A DNA stretch of 64,000 bases from an uncultured Bacilli bacterium. Lineage in GTDB: Bacteria > Bacillota_I > Bacilli_A > RF39 > UBA660. The position numbers and the translations under genes are program-made. The notes below the pieces were generated by a model. That model worked only from the letters and a program-made list of their open reading frames with translations. It made no database searches and had not been told where the DNA came from. This document shows positions 6,820 through 63,941 of this stretch, piece after piece; within the stretch, counting starts at the first letter, position 1; every line of letters begins with the position of its first letter. Where the stretch lies: positions 125,602-189,601 of the forward strand of contig CAKOWQ010000001.1 of the NCBI GenBank assembly GCA_934122395.1, given 5' to 3'.

Positions 6820-8046
6820 ATGGAACATTTTGAAGTATTTGTAGATCACAGTGGACACTTAGTTTTAAATCGTTATGACACTAGAAACCCATCTAGGATA
6901 GAAAATATTGCTAGGAAAGCAGATGTATATTATCCTTTGAAGGAATTATCTAAATATCCTATAAGGCACGTTGATATTTATGAGCAAAGGGATCTATCAG
7001 TTACGTTTGATGGATTCGTAGTTGATTTTATTAATTGTGATAGATTAGACCGCTATGAAATGGTGATGGCACCAATGATTAAAAAAGTGGATAAGGCTAT
7101 GCAACAAGATAGGATAAGAGAGATAAAAAAGTCTAGAGAGAAAAAAGGGTTAAATACTGCACCTAAAGTTAAACGAACAAATAAACATTCTGGGCTTCAA
7201 TTGGTAGCCGGGGCTGTTGTTCTTGCAACTCTTGCTACAACTGCACACTTTATGTTGGGAGCAAAGGCAGAAGAATCTGTTAAGGATAATCCTCCAACCA
7301 ACATTGAAATTGTTGAAGTAGGTAATAAAGATGATGAATTTTCTATTGATAATCTAGTATTTGTTGATAATAAGGTAGCTAATAATATTTCAGATTCTAA
7401 TACTATAAGTATTAATTATGAAGACAGATCTAATACTGAAAAAGCAAGAAAAACAAAAGCACTGTATGGTGATATTATAGAAAAATATGCAGAAGATTAT
7501 GGACTTGATCCTATTTTAGTTACTGCTGTTGCTACCCAAGAACGTGGAGTTCACTCTAGCATTATGGATAAGGGCGGTGCAACAGGACTAATGCAAATTC
7601 AAAATTCAGTATGGGTAGGTCATGAAGTATCAGCCTATAATTTTGACACGGGCAAAAAAGAAAGATTTGAAGTTACTGATGAAATGCTTGGAAATGTAGA
7701 ATCTAATATAAAAATTGGATGCATGATTTTACAAAATGCAATGGAATATATGAATTACAATGTTTTAGCAGGTATCCAGTGTTACAATATGGGATATGGA
7801 AACATGAACAAGATACTTACAGAGTGCGCTATGAAAAATGGTACTACTAAACAAGCAATATTAAACGATCCTAATAATATTAGTTGGATGGATTATCGTG
7901 ATATTATCTCAGTAGGTGATCAAAAATATGCTGAACATGTACTATCTTGGATTGGACCTAATGTAAATATTAAAGTTAGTACTAATAACAAAGATACTTC
8001 GGTATTATGCTGTAACAATACTATTAGTGACACAAAAGTATATTAA
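6820..8046 (+). CDS. Membrane-anchored lytic transglycosylase (SLT domain) with a novel N-terminal cytoplasmic domain
   Basis: Central TM (LQLVAGAVVLATLATTAHFM). SLT family-1 motifs TQERGVHS…GATGLMQI…CYNMGYGN. Start 3 nt after the DUF1292 stop. Confidence 0.65.
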   Translation: MEHFEVFVDHSGHLVLNRYDTRNPSRIENIARKADVYYPLKELSKYPIRHVDIYEQRDLSVTFDGFVVDFINCDRLDRYEMVMAPMIKKVDKAMQQDRIREIKKSREKKGLNTAPKVKRTNKHSGLQLVAGAVVLATLATTAHFMLGAKAEESVKDNPPTNIEIVEVGNKDDEFSIDNLVFVDNKVANNISDSNTISINYEDRSNTEKARKTKALYGDIIEKYAEDYGLDPILVTAVATQERGVHSSIMDKGGATGLMQIQNSVWVGHEVSAYNFDTGKKERFEVTDEMLGNVESNIKIGCMILQNAMEYMNYNVLAGIQCYNMGYGNMNKILTECAMKNGTTKQAILNDPNNISWMDYRDIISVGDQKYAEHVLSWIGPNVNIKVSTNNKDTSVLCCNNTISDTKVY

Positions 8047-9219: not shown

Positions 9220-9249
9220 TTGCCAAATTCCTAGGGGGGGTGGTATAGT
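9220..9249 (+). promoter_or_regulatory. Sigma-A-type promoter with a G7 homopolymer in the spacer (putative phase-variation switch) for the 9296 gene
   Basis: TTGCCA (-35), 18-nt spacer aattcctaGGGGGGGtgg, then TGgTATAGT (extended -10). A similar architecture with G11 sits upstream of the paralog at 62394–63884. Confidence 0.55.
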
Positions 9250-9295
9250 AATTAAAGATAAATATAATTCGGAGCAATAATGAAAGAGAAGTATT

Positions 9296-10750
9296 ATGAA
9301 TAAGAAACAAATAATAATAGTTGCAATGTGTTTAGTAGTATGTTTAATGATAGTAGGATATTCTATACTTGGACAGAACCTAAATATAGATGGAACGGCA
9401 GATATAGAGTCCAATTGGAATATATTATTTACTAGTGTAACAGCAAAAGAACAAACAAGTGGTGCAACATTTACTAGTACTCCTACAATAAGTGGAACAA
9501 CTCTAACATTTGGATTAGATTTAAAAGCACCAGGAGATGGAGTAAAGTTAGATGTAACAGTAGCAAATAAAGGAACATTAAATGCAATAATAAATAATAT
9601 TGAAGCCAAAAAGGGTGCTAATGAAGTAGTAAAGATAGAAATAACAGGAATAAAGAAAGGCGACAAACTAGGAAAAGGTGAATCAAAGACATTTGAAATT
9701 TATATAACATTTGATTCATCTGTAACAGATCAGCCAATAATGGATAGTGATATGTTAAGCGTGAGTGTAGACTTTGTCCAAGATGTAGGACAGACAATTA
9801 CAAGTGAAGACTTAGAAATAGTATCAATGGGATTAAGAAAGAAGATATTAAGAGATAATGAAGCACAAGCTGATACAAATATAGATTTTTCACAAATAAG
9901 TAGTGATACAAATGGGAAGGGCTTGTATTATACTTCAACAAACACTGAAGATAATAAAATAACATATTATTTTAGAGGAGCAGTAGAAAACAATTATGTA
10001 ACATTCGCTGGATTCACATGGCGAATAATAAGAATAAACGAAGATGGTAGCATAAGATTAATAAAGAAAGACACAATAGACTCTACAAAATTTGATAATG
10101 ATGATGGAGATGCAGCCTATGTAGGATATATGTATGGAACGCCGGACTCGTCGACATACGAGGAAACGCATAAAAATATTAATTCTAGTACTGTAAAAGA
10201 AGTGGTTGATACGTGGTATGAAAGTAATTTAATTGATTATACTTCGTTTTTATCAGATTCAGGTTTCTGCGGGGATAGAAGTATGGCTTCTAGTGCAGGT
10301 GTGTGGAGTGATATAGATACTGCATTAGGTTACGGATTTAATTATACATATTATGGAGCTAATAATAGATTAGATATAAACAGTACTCCACAATTTAAAT
10401 GCCCACAAGAAAACGACCTGTATACAACAACAACTGCCACGAAGGGTAACAAAGCATTAACATATCCGATAGGTTTAATAACAGCAGATGAAGCATCGTA
10501 TGCAGGAGCAGTACGTAACATATCAAACAAAACCAATTATTTAGCAGCAGCAGGTATATTCTGGACAATGTCACCGGCATCTTCTAGTAAAAAAGCTTAT
10601 GTCTTACGGGTACACACCGATGGCCGTATAGCTGCCGAAAACATTTTAACTGATAGATATGCTCGTCCAGTTATAAATCTCAAGCCAACAATAGAGATAA
10701 CAAAAGGTGATGGAACCCAAAATAATCCATATGTTATTAAAACAAACTAA
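9296..10750 (+). CDS. Secreted TasA/camelysin-like N-terminal domain protein with a large conserved C-terminal domain of unknown function (long paralog 1)
   Basis: Sec signal MNKKQIIIVAMCLVVCLMIVGYS, then a core TLTFGLDLKAPGDGVKLDVTVANKGTLNAIINNI resembling TasA/CalY L-x-PGD…N-G-S-L-A-I. About 85% nt identity in sampled stretches to the 62394–63884 gene. Confidence 0.55.
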   Translation: MNKKQIIIVAMCLVVCLMIVGYSILGQNLNIDGTADIESNWNILFTSVTAKEQTSGATFTSTPTISGTTLTFGLDLKAPGDGVKLDVTVANKGTLNAIINNIEAKKGANEVVKIEITGIKKGDKLGKGESKTFEIYITFDSSVTDQPIMDSDMLSVSVDFVQDVGQTITSEDLEIVSMGLRKKILRDNEAQADTNIDFSQISSDTNGKGLYYTSTNTEDNKITYYFRGAVENNYVTFAGFTWRIIRINEDGSIRLIKKDTIDSTKFDNDDGDAAYVGYMYGTPDSSTYEETHKNINSSTVKEVVDTWYESNLIDYTSFLSDSGFCGDRSMASSAGVWSDIDTALGYGFNYTYYGANNRLDINSTPQFKCPQENDLYTTTTATKGNKALTYPIGLITADEASYAGAVRNISNKTNYLAAAGIFWTMSPASSSKKAYVLRVHTDGRIAAENILTDRYARPVINLKPTIEITKGDGTQNNPYVIKTN

Positions 10751-20078: not shown

Positions 20079-20603
20079 ATGAATAAGAAAACAATTATGG
20101 CAGTAGCATTATGCGGAATGTTAGCTGCTATGGCAGTTGTTTATGCGGCATTCCAAACTACATTAACGGTAACTGGTACAACAACTCAAAGTGGTAACTT
20201 TAGTTTGCAAATTCTTGCAGAAGCAGCATCAGTAACAGGAACTGCAGGGTTAACTGGCGGAACAGCTCCAACAGCAACATGTACAAATACATCTGGATCT
20301 ACTACAGGAACTATGGCAGCAAAACTATATCAACCAGGAGATACTGTAACATGTTCTTATAAAGTAAAGAATGCTGGAACACTAAAAGCAAAAGCAAATG
20401 GAAATTATAGTTGTAGTCCATCATCACTTGCTAGTCCATTCTCTAGTTCAGTAACATGGAAGAAATCAGCACTAGCTAAAGGAGCTACAAGTGCTGCAGG
20501 AGAAATTACTATGACAATTACATACTTATCAAGTATAACTAGTCAACCAAGTACAACTAGTGCAAGTATTACATGTAATTTCCCATATACACAAGATATT
20601 TAA
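20079..20603 (+). CDS. Small secreted TasA/camelysin-like Thr/Ser/Ala-rich protein (short paralog A)
   Basis: Strong RBS AAGGAGG. Signal …AMAVVYAAF|QTTLTVTGT (AAF motif as in TasA WAAFND). Core LYQPGDTVTCSYKVKNAGTLKA. Confidence 0.55.
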   Translation: MNKKTIMAVALCGMLAAMAVVYAAFQTTLTVTGTTTQSGNFSLQILAEAASVTGTAGLTGGTAPTATCTNTSGSTTGTMAAKLYQPGDTVTCSYKVKNAGTLKAKANGNYSCSPSSLASPFSSSVTWKKSALAKGATSAAGEITMTITYLSSITSQPSTTSASITCNFPYTQDI

Positions 20604-20615
20604 TAGGAGGATATA

Positions 20616-21221
20616 ATGAAAGATAAAAAGGTATTATTAATATTAGTTTGTACTGCTGTATTAGTTCTAATGAGCGTAGCATTTGCAGCATTTAATCAAA
20701 CATTAAAAATAAATGGTACTGGTACTATTTCATCAACTTGGAAAGTTGAATTAGATACTGATACTGCTAATACTAAATGTACTGTATCAAGTAAGGATAG
20801 TGCTAATCCCACTACGTGTAACGTTACAGCGTTAAGCACTTCTGCATTAACTGCTAATATCAGTTGGGCTTCACCAGGGGACTCTGCTACAATCACTGCA
20901 AGAGTTAAAAATGGTGGTACACTTAATGCTAATGCTAGCATGTCTGCTAAGATAGGATTAACTAGTGCTGCTTCTTCTGCTTGTACAAATACTACAGCAA
21001 CAGCAAATTATACACAATATGCTGCTGATGGTAAAACTACTAGTGGAACAGCTAAAACTTTAACTGCAACAGCTCAAACAATTGGACCAATGAAAATATT
21101 AACACATGCAACATATAATTATGGTATTTATACAATTGTTATTACATATAATGCATCATCAACTGGAGCAGCTGGCGCATGTACATTCACAGGTACTGTT
21201 ACTGCAACACAAGCAGCTTAA
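20616..21221 (+). CDS. Small secreted TasA/camelysin-like Thr/Ser/Ala-rich protein (short paralog B)
   Basis: RBS AGGAGG. Signal …MSVAFAAF|NQTLKINGTGTISSTWKV. Core ISWASPGDSATITARVKNGGTLNA. Many N-x-S/T sequons. Confidence 0.55.
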   Translation: MKDKKVLLILVCTAVLVLMSVAFAAFNQTLKINGTGTISSTWKVELDTDTANTKCTVSSKDSANPTTCNVTALSTSALTANISWASPGDSATITARVKNGGTLNANASMSAKIGLTSAASSACTNTTATANYTQYAADGKTTSGTAKTLTATAQTIGPMKILTHATYNYGIYTIVITYNASSTGAAGACTFTGTVTATQAA

Positions 21222-22765: not shown

Positions 22766-23416
22766 ATGATTTTATTGGGTGAGATAATGAATTTAGGAAT
22801 TAAACGTACTAAGAATAATATAATGAAACAAAAAAAGCTATATCTATTTTTAATTGGATTAGTAATAGTTGGTATTATAGCAGGAATCTTATTTTGGTTT
22901 GTAATTAATAATGAAGACAAGCTATTGGTAACTAAAAATTTAAATAATTTTTTTGAATGTATAAAAAAAGGAAATGCAATTAATTATTGGGGGTCTTTAT
23001 TTAATTCATTAGTTACAGGCTTAATATATATAGTATTAATATGGTTATTGGGTATTTCAATTGTTGGCTTACCAATAATCTTGATTATTATAACAATTAA
23101 AAGTTTTATTGTAGGTTTTTCTATATCATCTATAATAGCTAGTTATGGATTTAAAGGAATATTAGGAGCTTTTGTATATACTTTTCCTCATCAAATAATA
23201 TTCTTATTGTTATTAATACTACTTGGCTTTTATTCATCATCTTTTTGCTTTAAGTTATTTAAATATTTATTTTTAAAGCAAGCTATTAATTTTAAAGATG
23301 CAATGCGTAAGTATTTTAAAATTTTGATTATTTCTTTAATCGTTGTATTGTTAACTTCTATATATGAAACGTTTATCGCAACTTATTTTATAAAGCTATT
23401 TACTTTATTAATTTAA
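22766..23416 (+). CDS. spoIIM: SpoIIM-like integral membrane protein
   Basis: About 200 aa with five TM segments, SpoIIM-like size and topology. The true start is probably internal, at MNLGIKR or MKQKKLY. Confidence 0.45.
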   Translation: MILLGEIMNLGIKRTKNNIMKQKKLYLFLIGLVIVGIIAGILFWFVINNEDKLLVTKNLNNFFECIKKGNAINYWGSLFNSLVTGLIYIVLIWLLGISIVGLPIILIIITIKSFIVGFSISSIIASYGFKGILGAFVYTFPHQIIFLLLLILLGFYSSSFCFKLFKYLFLKQAINFKDAMRKYFKILIISLIVVLLTSIYETFIATYFIKLFTLLI

Positions 23417-42235: not shown

Positions 42236-42263
42236 ACAAAATAAAAGAGACTTTTATGTCTCT
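42236..42263 (-). terminator. Intrinsic terminator of spoIVB-like gene
   Basis: Same agagac-ttttat-gtctct hairpin plus U run as downstream of tyrS. Confidence 0.6.
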
Positions 42264-43249
42264 TAATTTTCTCCTTCTTCTAGCATTGTAGTGATAAAGA
42301 TTCCATATCCTTTTTCATTATCATTTACAATAGCGTGAGTAACTGCTCCTATCAATTTATTGTTTTGTACAATAGGACTTCCACTCATTCCTTTAATTAC
42401 ACCATTAGTTTTATTAAGTAATTCTTTATCTGTAATTTCAAATAAGATGTTTTTTGTTTTAGTACTAGTATTAATCTTTAAAATATTAATAGAATATTCT
42501 TCAATCTTATTATCTTTTAATACAGTTAGTATCTTAGCTTCACCAGGGACTATTTCGTTAGGAGACGCAACTTCTATTAAATTATTCGTATTAAATTCAC
42601 TAGTATATGTTCCAAAAATACCGCTTATTGTATTTTCTTTTATATTACCATATACTATTCCCTTATTAAAAATTGCGTTCTTTTCACCAGTAGTAGTTCT
42701 ATCACTTTTAGTTGTTCCTGTAACATCAGATTTAAAGATTTTACCATCTTTTACTTCTATTTTCTGATTAGTATTAGCTTCTATTATTTCATGTCCAAGT
42801 GCTCCATATATTTTAGTTTCAGGGTCAATATAAGTTAATGTACCTATACCAGTAATTTCATCTTTAACGTATAGTCCGGTTTTATATACATCATTATTAT
42901 CACGTACTAAATCCAGTGTAACAGGTATTTCTCTATTACCTCTTGAGATAGTCATTTTTACTTTTGAATCTTTAATATTCTTATTAATTGCTGTAACCAT
43001 ATCACTGATTGAATAAACATTGGTATTAGAAACTCTAATTATTTTATCTCCTATTTCTATACCTGAATTCTTCCCAATATAAGAATCATTTACCTTGTAG
43101 AATCCTACAACCATTATACCTTTGGAATTAACCTCAATTCCGATGTTTTGTCCACCTAAGACAACTTTATTTGAATAAGCATAAGTAGATGTAGGAATTA
43201 CTAGTAAAAGAAGTGAGAAAAAAGTAAGTAGTTTATGTTTAAAATTCAT
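42263..43249 (-). CDS. spoIVB: SpoIVB peptidase (S55) with PDZ domain
   Basis: 328 aa. Signal peptide, PDZ, catalytic Ser motif GMSGSPI. Confidence 0.8.
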   Translation of the reverse strand: MNFKHKLLTFFSLLLLVIPTSTYAYSNKVVLGGQNIGIEVNSKGIMVVGFYKVNDSYIGKNSGIEIGDKIIRVSNTNVYSISDMVTAINKNIKDSKVKMTISRGNREIPVTLDLVRDNNDVYKTGLYVKDEITGIGTLTYIDPETKIYGALGHEIIEANTNQKIEVKDGKIFKSDVTGTTKSDRTTTGEKNAIFNKGIVYGNIKENTISGIFGTYTSEFNTNNLIEVASPNEIVPGEAKILTVLKDNKIEEYSINILKINTSTKTKNILFEITDKELLNKTNGVIKGMSGSPIVQNNKLIGAVTHAIVNDNEKGYGIFITTMLEEGEN

Positions 43250-49356: not shown

Positions 49357-49800
49357 TTATACAAGTAATTTAACGTCCCTTAAAAAGAAATAATCATTAT
49401 TATTGAAGTCACATACAAATAATTTAGAATCATAATTATTTAAAAGAGCAAAAAACTCAGTATAACTTTTGTTAGAATTAATTAATATATAAGTACCTTT
49501 TACTCTTAAAACGCTTACTTCATCTTTATACAAATTATTTAATATATGATTTTCTCCTTTTTTACTATATTTCATTTTAGTATGTAGTAATACATATAAA
49601 TACTTATCTAGATCAAACTTATTTATTCTATTAATCATTTGATTAAATAAAGTAAATCCATAACCTATTTCATTTCTTTTCATGTAGTACATTTGATTTA
49701 AAATATTATATAGTGTTCTAGGACTATCTTTATATAACTCAATGTATTCATCTTTAATTTTAAATACAAAATATATTCTCACTTTATCACCCAATATCAA
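49357..49800 (-). CDS. SirA/YneE-like protein (sporulation inhibitor of replication), tentative
   Basis: 147 aa. tkt–sirA–yneF synteny as in B. subtilis. N-terminal Y-x-F-x-IK-x-EY pattern. Confidence 0.4.
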   Translation of the reverse strand: MILGDKVRIYFVFKIKDEYIELYKDSPRTLYNILNQMYYMKRNEIGYGFTLFNQMINRINKFDLDKYLYVLLHTKMKYSKKGENHILNNLYKDEVSVLRVKGTYILINSNKSYTEFFALLNNYDSKLFVCDFNNNDYFFLRDVKLLV

Positions 49801-62393: not shown

Positions 62394-63884
62394 TTAATTA
62401 GTTTTTATAATGTATGGGTTATTTTTAGTTCCGTTTCCACCCATGATTTGAGCATCAAATTTTAAATTGATAACTGGTCGAACATCCCATTCACGATAAG
62501 AACCATCGTAACTCGTTTGTCCCTCGTCTACTACAAGGCATACATAAGCAGTTGAAGAAACATAATTAGGCGATATCATCCAAAAGCTTATTCCCGAATT
62601 CATATAATAACCATTATTTTCCCAGCCACTAATTCCTCCTGCATAATTCGTTTCATCAGCCGTTATTAATCCGATTGGATAATCTAGAGCTTTATTACCT
62701 TTATTAGTCGTCTTAGTTGTATATAAATCATTTACTTGAGGACATTTGAATTGTGGCTTCTTCCTAGTCCAATTTTTAAATGATTCTAGTCTTGCTGTAG
62801 ATCCATAAACCGTTTCGTTAACACCATATCCTAAAGCAGTATCACCTGGCTTCCAAATATTAGGGGCAGATGCTACACTTCTATCTCCACAGAATCCTGA
62901 ATCAGCTAAATAACTTGAATAACTCATTAAATTATTTTGATACCATGTATCTATAAAAGTCTTTATTGTACTTGAATTAATATTTGCATGTGTCTCTTCA
63001 TACGTTGAAGCACCAACTGTCCCATACATATATCCTACATATGCATTATCAGTATCATCCTCATTAAACTTGCTCTTGCCTATCGAATCTTGCTTTATTA
63101 ATCTTATTGAACCATCTTCATTTATTCTTACTATTCTCCATGTGAATCCTGCGAATGTTACATAGTTATTTTCTACTTCTCCTCTAAAATAATATGTTAC
63201 TTTATTATCTTCGGTATTGGTACTTGTATAATATAATCCTTTACCATTTGTATCACTACTTATCTTAGAAAAATCTATACTTGTATCCGCTTGTGCTTCA
63301 TTGTCTTTCAATATTTTTGCTGCTAGTCTTGTTGGTACTATTATAGTATCATCTGTTACTATCGTTTGTCCTGTATCTTGTACATAATTAATATTTATTG
63401 TTAATGTACTATCTATTAAATTAGGTTGGCTTGTTACATTGTTATCATATGATATTGTTACATCAAATGTCGTTGTTGTTTTACTTGCTAATTTGTCTCC
63501 CTTTTTAATACCTGTTATTTCAAAATTTATTGCATCACTTCCAGTCTCGCTTGCTGTTATATCATCTATTACTGCATTTAATGTCCCTTGATTTGCTACT
63601 GTTATTTTGTAGACTATATTGTCTCCTGGGCTTGTTAAGTCTATATTGAATGTTGCTGTTGTTCCACTTGCTGTTGGTGTTTCTTTTATCTTTATTCCAC
63701 TTGTTTTGAACACCTCTGTTATGTCTGTAAATACCACTTTCCAGGTTGACTCTATACTTGATGTTCCTGTTATTGTTAGTTTTGTTGCAAAGGCTGCATA
63801 CCCTACTGCCATTATACATATTAAGCTACACATTGCTATTATCAATATCTTCTTACTTTTCATATACTTTTCTTCCATCTCCAT
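62394..63884 (-). CDS. Secreted TasA/camelysin-like N-terminal domain protein with conserved C-terminal domain (long paralog 2)
   Basis: 496 aa. Signal …AMCSLICIMAVGYAAF|ATKLTITGT. Core ATFNIDLTSPGDNIVYKITVANQGTLNAVIDDI. C-terminal domain collinear with the 9296 gene. RBS GGAGG favours the second or third Met as the start. Confidence 0.55.
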   Translation of the reverse strand: MEMEEKYMKSKKILIIAMCSLICIMAVGYAAFATKLTITGTSSIESTWKVVFTDITEVFKTSGIKIKETPTASGTTATFNIDLTSPGDNIVYKITVANQGTLNAVIDDITASETGSDAINFEITGIKKGDKLASKTTTTFDVTISYDNNVTSQPNLIDSTLTININYVQDTGQTIVTDDTIIVPTRLAAKILKDNEAQADTSIDFSKISSDTNGKGLYYTSTNTEDNKVTYYFRGEVENNYVTFAGFTWRIVRINEDGSIRLIKQDSIGKSKFNEDDTDNAYVGYMYGTVGASTYEETHANINSSTIKTFIDTWYQNNLMSYSSYLADSGFCGDRSVASAPNIWKPGDTALGYGVNETVYGSTARLESFKNWTRKKPQFKCPQVNDLYTTKTTNKGNKALDYPIGLITADETNYAGGISGWENNGYYMNSGISFWMISPNYVSSTAYVCLVVDEGQTSYDGSYREWDVRPVINLKFDAQIMGGNGTKNNPYIIKTN

Positions 63885-63910: not shown

Positions 63911-63941
63911 ATTATACCCCCCCCCCCTAGGGATTTTGCAA
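63911..63941 (-). promoter_or_regulatory. Sigma-A-type promoter with a G11 (C11 on the + strand) homopolymer in the spacer (putative phase-variation switch)
   Basis: Minus strand: TTGCAA aatcccta GGGGGGGGGGG TATAAT, spacer 19 nt. Conserved with the 9220–9249 promoter, which has G7 and an 18-nt spacer. Confidence 0.55.

Follow-up and report, generated by a model that had tools for sequence, protein, structure and literature searches.

The 64,000-nucleotide stretch considered here (hereafter the window; positions 125,602 to 189,601 of contig CAKOWQ010000001.1, assembly GCA_934122395.1, from an uncultured Bacilli bacterium) contains four genes of one protein family, two long and two short. We consider it probable, though well short of certain, that the family is made up of independently phase-variable and antigenically diverse surface binding proteins, and that it constitutes a surface-variation system rather than a fibre of the TasA type. 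Its distinctive feature is a combination: an expanded family, a cassette that is hypervariable between alleles, a poly-G promoter for each gene, and a structural link to the N-terminal domain of an IgA protease. While homopolymer phase variation of a variable surface family is known from other systems, the novelty lies in the architecture of the proteins, in the lineage and in the scale. A preliminary description of this DNA had included neither the poly-G promoters nor the hypervariable cassette nor the scale of the family, all three of which were found here.

Poly-G promoters of the long genes

The first long gene (9296–10750, plus strand) is an open reading frame (ORF) for a 484-aa protein, composed of a leader, an Ig-like sandwich and a DUF6273-type lectin-like domain. 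The second (62394–63884) lies on the minus strand, which the preliminary description had not stated. Its longest ORF encodes 496 aa, but since public gene calls give 494 aa the start is probably at 63878, which sits 6 nt after a GGAGG. The two short paralogues stand in tandem on the plus strand and consist of the leader and Ig-like module only: an ORF of 174 aa (20079–20603) and one of 201 aa (20616–21221), where the alignment reveals a Thr/Ala/Cys-rich insert in the module. All four ORFs exist as first described, and the N-terminal module of ~170 aa common to them reflects a relationship far beyond chance. Identity between the two long proteins is 57-58% from end to end (E = 0), and the short proteins align with the first ~100-170 residues of that pair with E = 1e-7 to 6e-21. 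Both short paralogues (20079–21221) are rich in Thr, Ser and Ala; the 201-aa one has conserved Cys pairs and an insert of ~40 aa, and has 20 detectable homologues, against thousands for the long type. No further copies were found in the window by tblastn, none of the four proteins or their clusters carries a public name, and searches of NCBIfam and PHROGs returned nothing significant for the family.

Judging from the sequence, the long genes are individual units, each with a conserved promoter of the sigma-70 type, in which a G7-G13 tract occupies the spacer between the -35 and -10 elements. The promoter of the 9296 gene (9220–9249, plus strand) consists of TTGCCA, an 18-nt spacer (aattcctaGGGGGGGtgg) and TATAGT, with a TG-extended -10; its spacer holds a G7 tract (9234–9240, plus strand), interrupted as G7-T-GG, which is a candidate slipped-strand switch. 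The same promoter was called by a promoter scanner (10/12 matches, TG before the -10). The promoter of the second long gene (63911–63941, minus strand) was read from the sequence as TTGCAA, a 19-nt spacer (aatccctaG11) and TATAAT, with the G11 tract at 63917–63927 on the minus strand. It was not called by the scanner, because the latter accepts spacers of 16-18 nt only. These two are the only G/C runs of ≥6 in the window, where 0.1 runs of ≥7 would be expected from composition. Upstream of the short paralogues there is no G tract, as seen from both the upstream sequence and the count of G/C runs.

At least 32 of 64 family genes have the same promoter cassette upstream, in metagenome-assembled genomes (MAGs) of several human and rabbit gut species, in the order T-run or terminator, TTGnnA, 7-8 nt, G10-13, TATAAT, conserved leader and CGGAG. 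Related loci totalling 775 kb hold 40 G/C runs of ≥8, every one of them in this promoter context. Tract length, as given by assemblies and not by reads, differs between near-identical strains. At the locus downstream of trx it is G7-T-GG in the window, G10 in L106 and L100, and G11 in L107, L087, L090 and L091, with gene DNA 97.4% (L106) and 98.8% (L107) identical to that of the window; other orthologous loci differ likewise (L003 with G11 and L089 with G10; L020 with G12 and L095 with G11). Poly-G promoter loci repeatedly cause assemblies of this lineage to break, since several contigs end exactly at the G tract and many of the family loci in MAGs stand at contig ends (some of the loci are in tandem). 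The contig or locus ends at or beside a poly-G promoter in L088, L092, L094, L099, L101 and L105.

In the contingency loci of Mycoplasma hyorhinis (vlp, poly-A) and Neisseria meningitidis (porA and opc, poly-G/C), a homopolymer in the promoter spacer acts as a slipped-strand switch of promoter strength. By analogy, the poly-G tract probably switches the long members on and off at random. Slipped-strand mispairing at the tract would change the spacer between about 17 and 20 nt, at a promoter belonging to each gene, so that each copy would switch independently between expressed and silent states. No relevant account of phase variation by poly-G promoters in gut Bacilli came up in a literature search.

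The start region of the 9296 gene has two further peculiarities. The G-to-T interruption of its tract creates the TG-extended -10 (TGgTATAGT, 9241–9249, plus strand); other strains have an uninterrupted G10 or G11 followed by TATAAT. The extension could possibly make the promoter of the window strain less dependent on the spacer, as a "locked" variant. In addition, the ATG nearest to the ribosome-binding site opens an upstream ORF of seven codons (MKEKYYE*) that overlaps the main ATG (9280–9303, plus strand). The same upstream ORF is present in L085, L086, L087, L090 and L093, while most paralogues are instead in frame (MEEKYMKSKK…), and a difference of 1 nt separates the two forms (TAT-T-ATG and TAT-ATG). 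Given this difference and the overlap, the main ORF of the 9296 gene may depend on translational coupling.

Hypervariable cassette and expansion of the family

A hypervariable cassette makes up the distal half of the lectin-like domain. In the 9296 gene it spans ~residues 257-467 (10066–10695, plus strand), as delimited by allele comparison and paralogue entropy, and its equivalent in the second long gene lies at 62448–63095 on the minus strand, according to comparison with the homologues P0038 and P0023. Entropy across paralogues is highest in two stretches, residues 331-360 and 401-460. Identity between the 9296 protein and its closest relatives is 96-99% in the N-terminal module, and only 25-45% in segments 261-280, 321-360 and 401-460. 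The variation is also allelic: one of these relatives, P0003, is a true allele of the 9296 gene, at the same locus between trx and IMPACT. When the window was compared with the same-locus allele L087 by nucleotide identity in 90-nt bins, values of 91-100% over the first 770 nt of the gene fell to 47-76% at 10066–10695, returned to 93-98% in the bins that follow from 10696 on, and were 92-100% in nearly all bins of the flanking genes (lowest 82%). The second long gene presents the same picture, with 100% identity to P0038 in the conserved part of the C-terminal domain and 61% in the cassette (97% and 75%, respectively, for P0023). Cassette identity is constant at 53-61% whereas that of the N-terminal module is anywhere from 41% to 99%, and the cassette therefore evolves independently of the rest of the gene. 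Shuffling of cassettes from a small pool was considered as a source of this diversity and is not supported, since the best candidate donor of the 9296 cassette among the homologues fetched reaches at most 61% identity. A minor second variable spot was seen in a lytic-transglycosylase-like gene with an SLT domain (6820–8046), where positions 7276–7365 are 82% identical between strains and the neighbouring bins 93-100%.

The preliminary description counted four members, which holds within the window but not beyond it. A fifth gene with the N-terminal module (P0287), preceded by the same promoter cassette, is located on the same contig 8-15 kb beyond the window start, and a species-representative genome set gave 424 genomic matches in few MAG species. 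An exhaustive search with the profile of the N-terminal module retrieved 8,780 representative proteins at E ≤ 0.001, 4,644 of them at E ≤ 1e-10. For the long 9296 protein, at least 3,506 homologues were found, none of them named. The 79 loci that were kept come from seven MAGs only, one of which contributes at least 29 loci and another at least 13 (17 genes). In uncultured gut Bacilli, a genome carries dozens of family genes; the related genomes are MAGs from the gut of humans and rabbits, with the title "uncultured Bacilli bacterium".

Throughout the family the N-terminal module occupies residues 1 to ~167 of proteins that are 160 to about 1,070 aa long, except for a few giant multi-repeat proteins which match its core only. 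Its C-terminal partners include DUF6273, BspA-type leucine-rich repeats, DUF285, Listeria-Bacteroides repeats, HINT, CBM_X2 and Laminin_G_3. As it is fused to so many partners of a binding type, the module behaves as a lineage-typical module for the export and presentation of binding domains. Among the members with inserts (L039, L044, L047, L049, L058, L069; L051, L054-L057, L059, L061-L065), some have ~1 kb extra between the N-terminal module and the lectin-like domain, and others have inserts of 70-90 aa inside the latter, at about its residue 60 or 105-116. A CBM_X2 domain is present in one relative.

Domain architecture and the resemblance to TasA

The leader of the 9296 protein (9296–9421, plus strand), delimited from the AlphaFold model and the invariant columns, comprises a hydrophobic helix (residues 2-27) and a conserved segment (residues 28-42). 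It is followed by the Ig-like β-sandwich (residues 43-176; 9422–9823, plus strand), which holds the PGD…N-x-G-T-L-N-A hairpin, and by the enlarged C-type-lectin-like, DUF6273-type domain (residues 180-484; 9833–10747, plus strand). The AlphaFold models of the long 9296 protein and of the short 20079 protein (mean predicted local distance difference test, pLDDT, of 84.6 and 82.3, respectively) agree on a hydrophobic helix at ~2-27, an unplaced segment of low confidence to ~42, and a β-sandwich from 43 to ~175; in the 9296 model, pLDDT is below 50 at residues 19-35. The motifs named in the preliminary description are largely where it placed them. The T-L-x-I-x-G-T motif occurs in all four proteins, in the form [TNK]-L-x-[IV]-x-G-T, as do the PGD motif and V-x-N-x-G-T-L-[NK]-A, and each of YVTFAGFTWRI, GFCGDRS, YPIGLITADE and RPVINLK is present in both long proteins. 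The (Y/F)AAF ending of the leader is found in three of the proteins (GYAAF, VYAAF, AFAAF), but the 9296 protein has GYSIL instead, and the C-terminal domain common to the long pair measures ~305 aa and not ~330 aa.

Family leaders have a K-rich n-region (MxKKK), a hydrophobic helix of 17-20 residues and a small-x-small site before A-F, and the proteins are accordingly predicted to be exported by a Sec-type leader. For a signal peptide, the region shows uncommon conservation (C12, M18, G21-Y-A-A-F, L29, I31, G33, W41), and four of these residues (L29, I31, G33 and W41) are invariant in segment 28-42, which the monomer model leaves unplaced. Such conservation could possibly stem from processing by an enzyme of its own, from contacts inside the membrane, or from a donor-strand function. 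The leader may be cut at A|AF or may be retained as a membrane anchor. Other ways of sorting were considered and rejected: the G-F-T-x-x-E of type IV pilins and pseudopilins is absent from the family leaders; the proteins end in …NPY(V/I)IKTN, with neither LPXTG nor a hydrophobic tail; and the conserved Cys12 cannot be read as a lipoprotein cysteine, because M, L or V stands before it and ~10 further hydrophobic residues come after it.

The resemblance to TasA and camelysin, which the preliminary description had proposed for all four proteins, is real but local. In common with TasA/CalY (PF12389, the fibre proteins dependent on SipW), the leader ends with aromatic-A-A-F and there is an F-x-L-x-x-x-PGD…N-x-G-[ST]-L hairpin. 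However, no Pfam or NCBIfam model reaches its cut-off on the window proteins. Pfam M73 (PF12389) matches the 20079 protein only, over 22 residues, with 12.6 bits against a cut-off of 22.5 (E = 0.13), and membership by this profile was rejected since the score is below the gathering threshold. Below threshold, 24 N-terminal modules match M73 in 11 cases (best E-value 0.0012), DUF7507 in 8, CARDB in 8, HYDIN/VesB Ig-like families in 7 and DUF11 in 5, while 105 wider family members at E ≤ 0.001 match DUF7507 in 13 cases, HYDIN/VesB in 8 and M73 in 2; the same PGD hairpin draws the sub-threshold matches to several families. Profiles were then compared directly, using 43 PF12389 proteins for TasA (the TasA sequence itself being that of PDB 8aur and 5of1, which was confirmed). 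With the leaders included the match has a probability of 91.4% over 81 columns and YAAF is aligned on WAAF; without them it falls to 72.7% over 32 columns, where only the F-x-L…PGD…N-x-G-x-L hairpin aligns, and the leaders alone give 12% over 29 columns. As controls, a reversed TasA profile gave 0.1% (13 columns) and the family's C-terminal domain against TasA 0.3% (12 columns).

The structural comparison gives a similar result. The β-sandwich expected from a likeness to TasA is there, but the TasA fold (PDB 5of1, 8aur) is absent among the 50-60 fold matches listed for both models. Only 32 of ~150 mature columns align; the sandwich of the family is smaller, with an extra hairpin before the PGD, and most members have large C-terminal binding domains. 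The family also differs by lacking an operon and, in the window, sipW and tapA. As first described, sipW is not visible there: neither it nor tapA appears in the Pfam gene tables of the window, nor does any S24/S26 signal peptidase in those tables or by tblastn, and a tblastn search of 839 kb of related DNA with SipW and SipS sequences gave no match. The models thus describe the N-terminal module as a generic Ig-like β-sandwich; it cannot be filed in the TasA/camelysin family, and the TasA label is not justified and should not be transferred.

For the C-terminal domain, which the preliminary description could not assign to any family, the best structural match is a protease chain, in the N-terminal domain of the IgA protease IgAse/ThomasA of Thomasclavelia ramosa (PDB 9qa6), and the remaining matches are lectin-like binding domains. 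This IgAse domain (A31-A321) has a C-type-lectin-like core enlarged to twice the usual size and a structural zinc on D78, H90 and C126 (PMC12237041), and it is annotated as DUF6273 (PMC12402451). DUF6273 (PF19789) is also the sole Pfam family matching the C-terminal domain, although on the window proteins it reaches only 14 bits against a cut-off of 23.5 (E = 0.04 and 0.06) and only the last third of the model is covered. It is found at E ≤ 0.1 in 26 of 63 long members (best 4.2e-6) and is precomputed in 5 of the 120 homologues listed. HMMER searches against the PDB, with the family profile and with the C-terminal domain alone, gave nothing useful, and the relationship to IgAse is visible by structure only, not by sequence. 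Since the structural match to the IgAse domain and the independent DUF6273 matches agree, the predicted fold points to a divergent, enlarged DUF6273/C-type-lectin-like domain, which is neither an unknown fold nor an enzyme family. In IgAse the DUF6273 domain is N-terminal (residues 31-322) and has a peptidase attached, whereas here it is C-terminal, following an Ig-like module, without a peptidase, and present in dozens of copies behind poly-G promoters with its distal half hypervariable. Its invariant polar residues are H292, C325, D327, C369, D374 and D398-E399, and the first four of these may form a structural metal site or a disulphide.

Favoured reading, alternatives and significance

In the surface-variation reading, the lectin-like head would bind a ligand, for example a host or microbial glycan or protein, and many differently shaped heads, switched at random, would vary both the binding of the cell and its recognition by host antibody or phage. 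The short paralogues, with neither head nor G tract, would amount to the bare module, expressed constitutively, and might act as shaft, decoy or anchor. In its fullest form, this would be a contingency repertoire of gut Bacilli in which dozens of scattered poly-G-switched genes encode hypervariable lectin-like heads on a common Ig-like stalk, with a changing subset on display; we hold this complete picture with less confidence, at somewhat below even chances.

Several points weigh against it. Tract lengths are known from assemblies alone, and differences of one G could be errors of consensus or assembly. Most of the assembled tracts lead to spacers of 18-20 nt with no one "on" length indicated, and interrupted tracts are found at spacers of 18, 19 and 20 nt, which does not indicate a single locked state either. 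Among the homologues fetched, no donor of the 9296 cassette was found above 61% identity. Surface exposure is inferred for proteins that have neither LPXTG nor a lipobox nor wall-binding repeats, and 484 aa might be too short for a protein anchored in the membrane to reach through a thick wall. Lastly, the homologous domain of IgAse is without an assigned function and is dispensable for IgA cleavage (PMC12237041).

One alternative for the protein itself is a TasA/camelysin-like fibre, in which, after cleavage at A|AF, the strand at ~24-42 inserts into the sandwich of the next subunit, the short paralogues serving as shaft subunits and the long ones as adhesin-bearing subunits. Neither monomer model places the conserved segment 28-42, as would be expected of a donor strand, the head-less short paralogues stand in tandem, M73 is the most frequent sub-threshold Pfam match in the set of 24 modules (11/24), and the profile match with leaders places YAAF on WAAF (91% over 81 columns). 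Against the fibre, the match shrinks to 73% over 32 columns without the leaders (the leader alone gives 12%), Pfam scores stay under the cut-off, with DUF7507 ahead of M73 by 13 to 2 in the set of 105 members, TasA is missing from the 50-60 fold matches listed for either model, and no sipW or tapA is seen in the window or, with SipW and SipS as baits, in the 839 kb. The genes are moreover scattered singly, each with its own promoter, and the independent switching of dozens of "tip" subunits needs no fibre. We therefore regard such a fibre as quite unlikely, while the conserved N-terminal module being a distant TasA relative that polymerises by strand exchange is a possibility. As to the fibre, adhesin or amyloid-like surface system that had been suggested at first, an adhesin-like role is plausible for proteins predicted to be exported, but the TasA-type fibre is not favoured. 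A different objection is that the G tracts are fixed promoter elements, either a regulator site or structural, and that the genes are ordinary paralogues which have diverged by drift under relaxed constraint. Tract lengths do cluster narrowly at G10-G12, the differences seen are of ±1 only and come from short-read assemblies, and some tracts are interrupted, which would slow slippage. On the other hand, tracts of ≥10 G are intrinsically unstable in replication, as is established for the contingency loci of Neisseria, Haemophilus and Mycoplasma; in this case they occur nowhere else in 840 kb of DNA with 28% GC, they differ in length between strains whose gene is 97-99% identical, and several contigs end exactly at the tract, as heterogeneous reads would give. 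The cassette boundaries, which are sharp beside conserved framework segments, are also unlike uniform drift, and we judge this explanation unlikely.

Two further explanations concern the C-terminal domain. If it were a secreted hydrolase or peptidase, the family would consist of degradative exoenzymes, and the invariant polar residues (H292, C325, D327, C369, D374, D398-E399) and the protease chain that is the best structural match could be seen in this light. There is, however, no HExxH motif in the protein, searches of Pfam, NCBIfam and PDB sequences found no enzyme family, the other structural matches are lectin-like binding domains, and the IgAse domain has a structural zinc site (D78, H90, C126) to which the invariant His, Cys and Asp are similar; an enzyme is thus very unlikely. 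The lectin-like domain could also be diversified by a diversity-generating retroelement (DGR), as in other variable proteins with DUF6273 or a CLec fold. Like Bordetella phage Mtd, Treponema denticola TvpA and the "tentaclin"-type phage receptor-binding proteins with DUF6273, the family has a lectin-like scaffold with its variable part in the C-terminal portion, and DUF6273 is reported in some DGR variable proteins, as the target in phage receptor-binding proteins. In the window, though, there is neither a template repeat or second copy of either cassette nor a reverse-transcriptase (RVT) Pfam family in the gene tables. Indels (472-484 aa) and replacement of whole segments separate the alleles, with nucleotide identity down to 47% within 630 nt, which is not the result of adenine-directed mutagenesis, and a scan of viral contigs found no relatives. 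We consider this origin the most improbable of those discussed.

The four genes are scattered among housekeeping genes (trx, IMPACT, uvrC, a mtaB-like gene and a U32 peptidase), in a window of 27.6% GC which is identical to contigs from Hadza human-gut metagenomes. Families associated with sporulation were noted at 22766–23416, 42263–43249 and 49357–49800, and in the L083/L084 rows (SpoIIM, Peptidase_S55/SpoIVB, SirA and the L27 Prp protease), and their presence suggests that the lineage forms spores, or did so until recently, in spite of its low GC. At the start of the window, two ORFs on the plus strand (762–1337 and 1324–1875) have classical prepilin/pseudopilin leaders (MKKIDNKGFVIVE… and MKLDNKGFTVIEL…) and adjoin a T2SSE ATPase (PF00437) on the minus strand (1–667), which runs off the window start. 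This region (1–1875) is a ComG- or type-IV-pilus-like system, unrelated to the lectin-like family.

The closest parallels to the proposed switch are vlp, porA and opc, where a homopolymer likewise lies between the -35 and -10 elements, so that slippage by one base changes the spacer, and where a multigene variable surface family has its own switch per gene. In contrast to these, the products here combine Ig-like and lectin-like domains rather than being lipoproteins or porins, the host is a spore-former-like lineage of gut Bacilli, and the switching is a prediction. With respect to fold, another lectin-like binding domain, the C-terminal domain of Legionella pneumophila Lcl (DUF1566/Lcl_C, PDB 8q4e), is half the size of the family's C-terminal domain, has no detectable sequence relationship to it, and sits on a collagen-like stalk.

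Some consequences for annotation follow directly, namely that the C-terminal domain is not a new fold and that the TasA label is not transferable. Among gut bacteria, phase-variable surface repertoires have been well described in Bacteroides, where they work by invertible promoters, and they are also well described in pathogens. To our knowledge, almost nothing is known of them in the reduced-genome uncultured Bacilli that are common in non-industrial human guts and in herbivores. If both the switch and the surface display are real, the length of the G tract would be a marker of phase state that can be read from sequence and scored in metagenomes, and the assembly breaks at these loci would be explained. 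The family would also offer a large natural library of DUF6273 lectin-like heads for the discovery of ligands, including that of the N-terminal domain of the IgA protease. These gut Bacilli would then possess a counterpart of the variable-surface-protein system of mycoplasmas, built from a lectin scaffold related to that domain.

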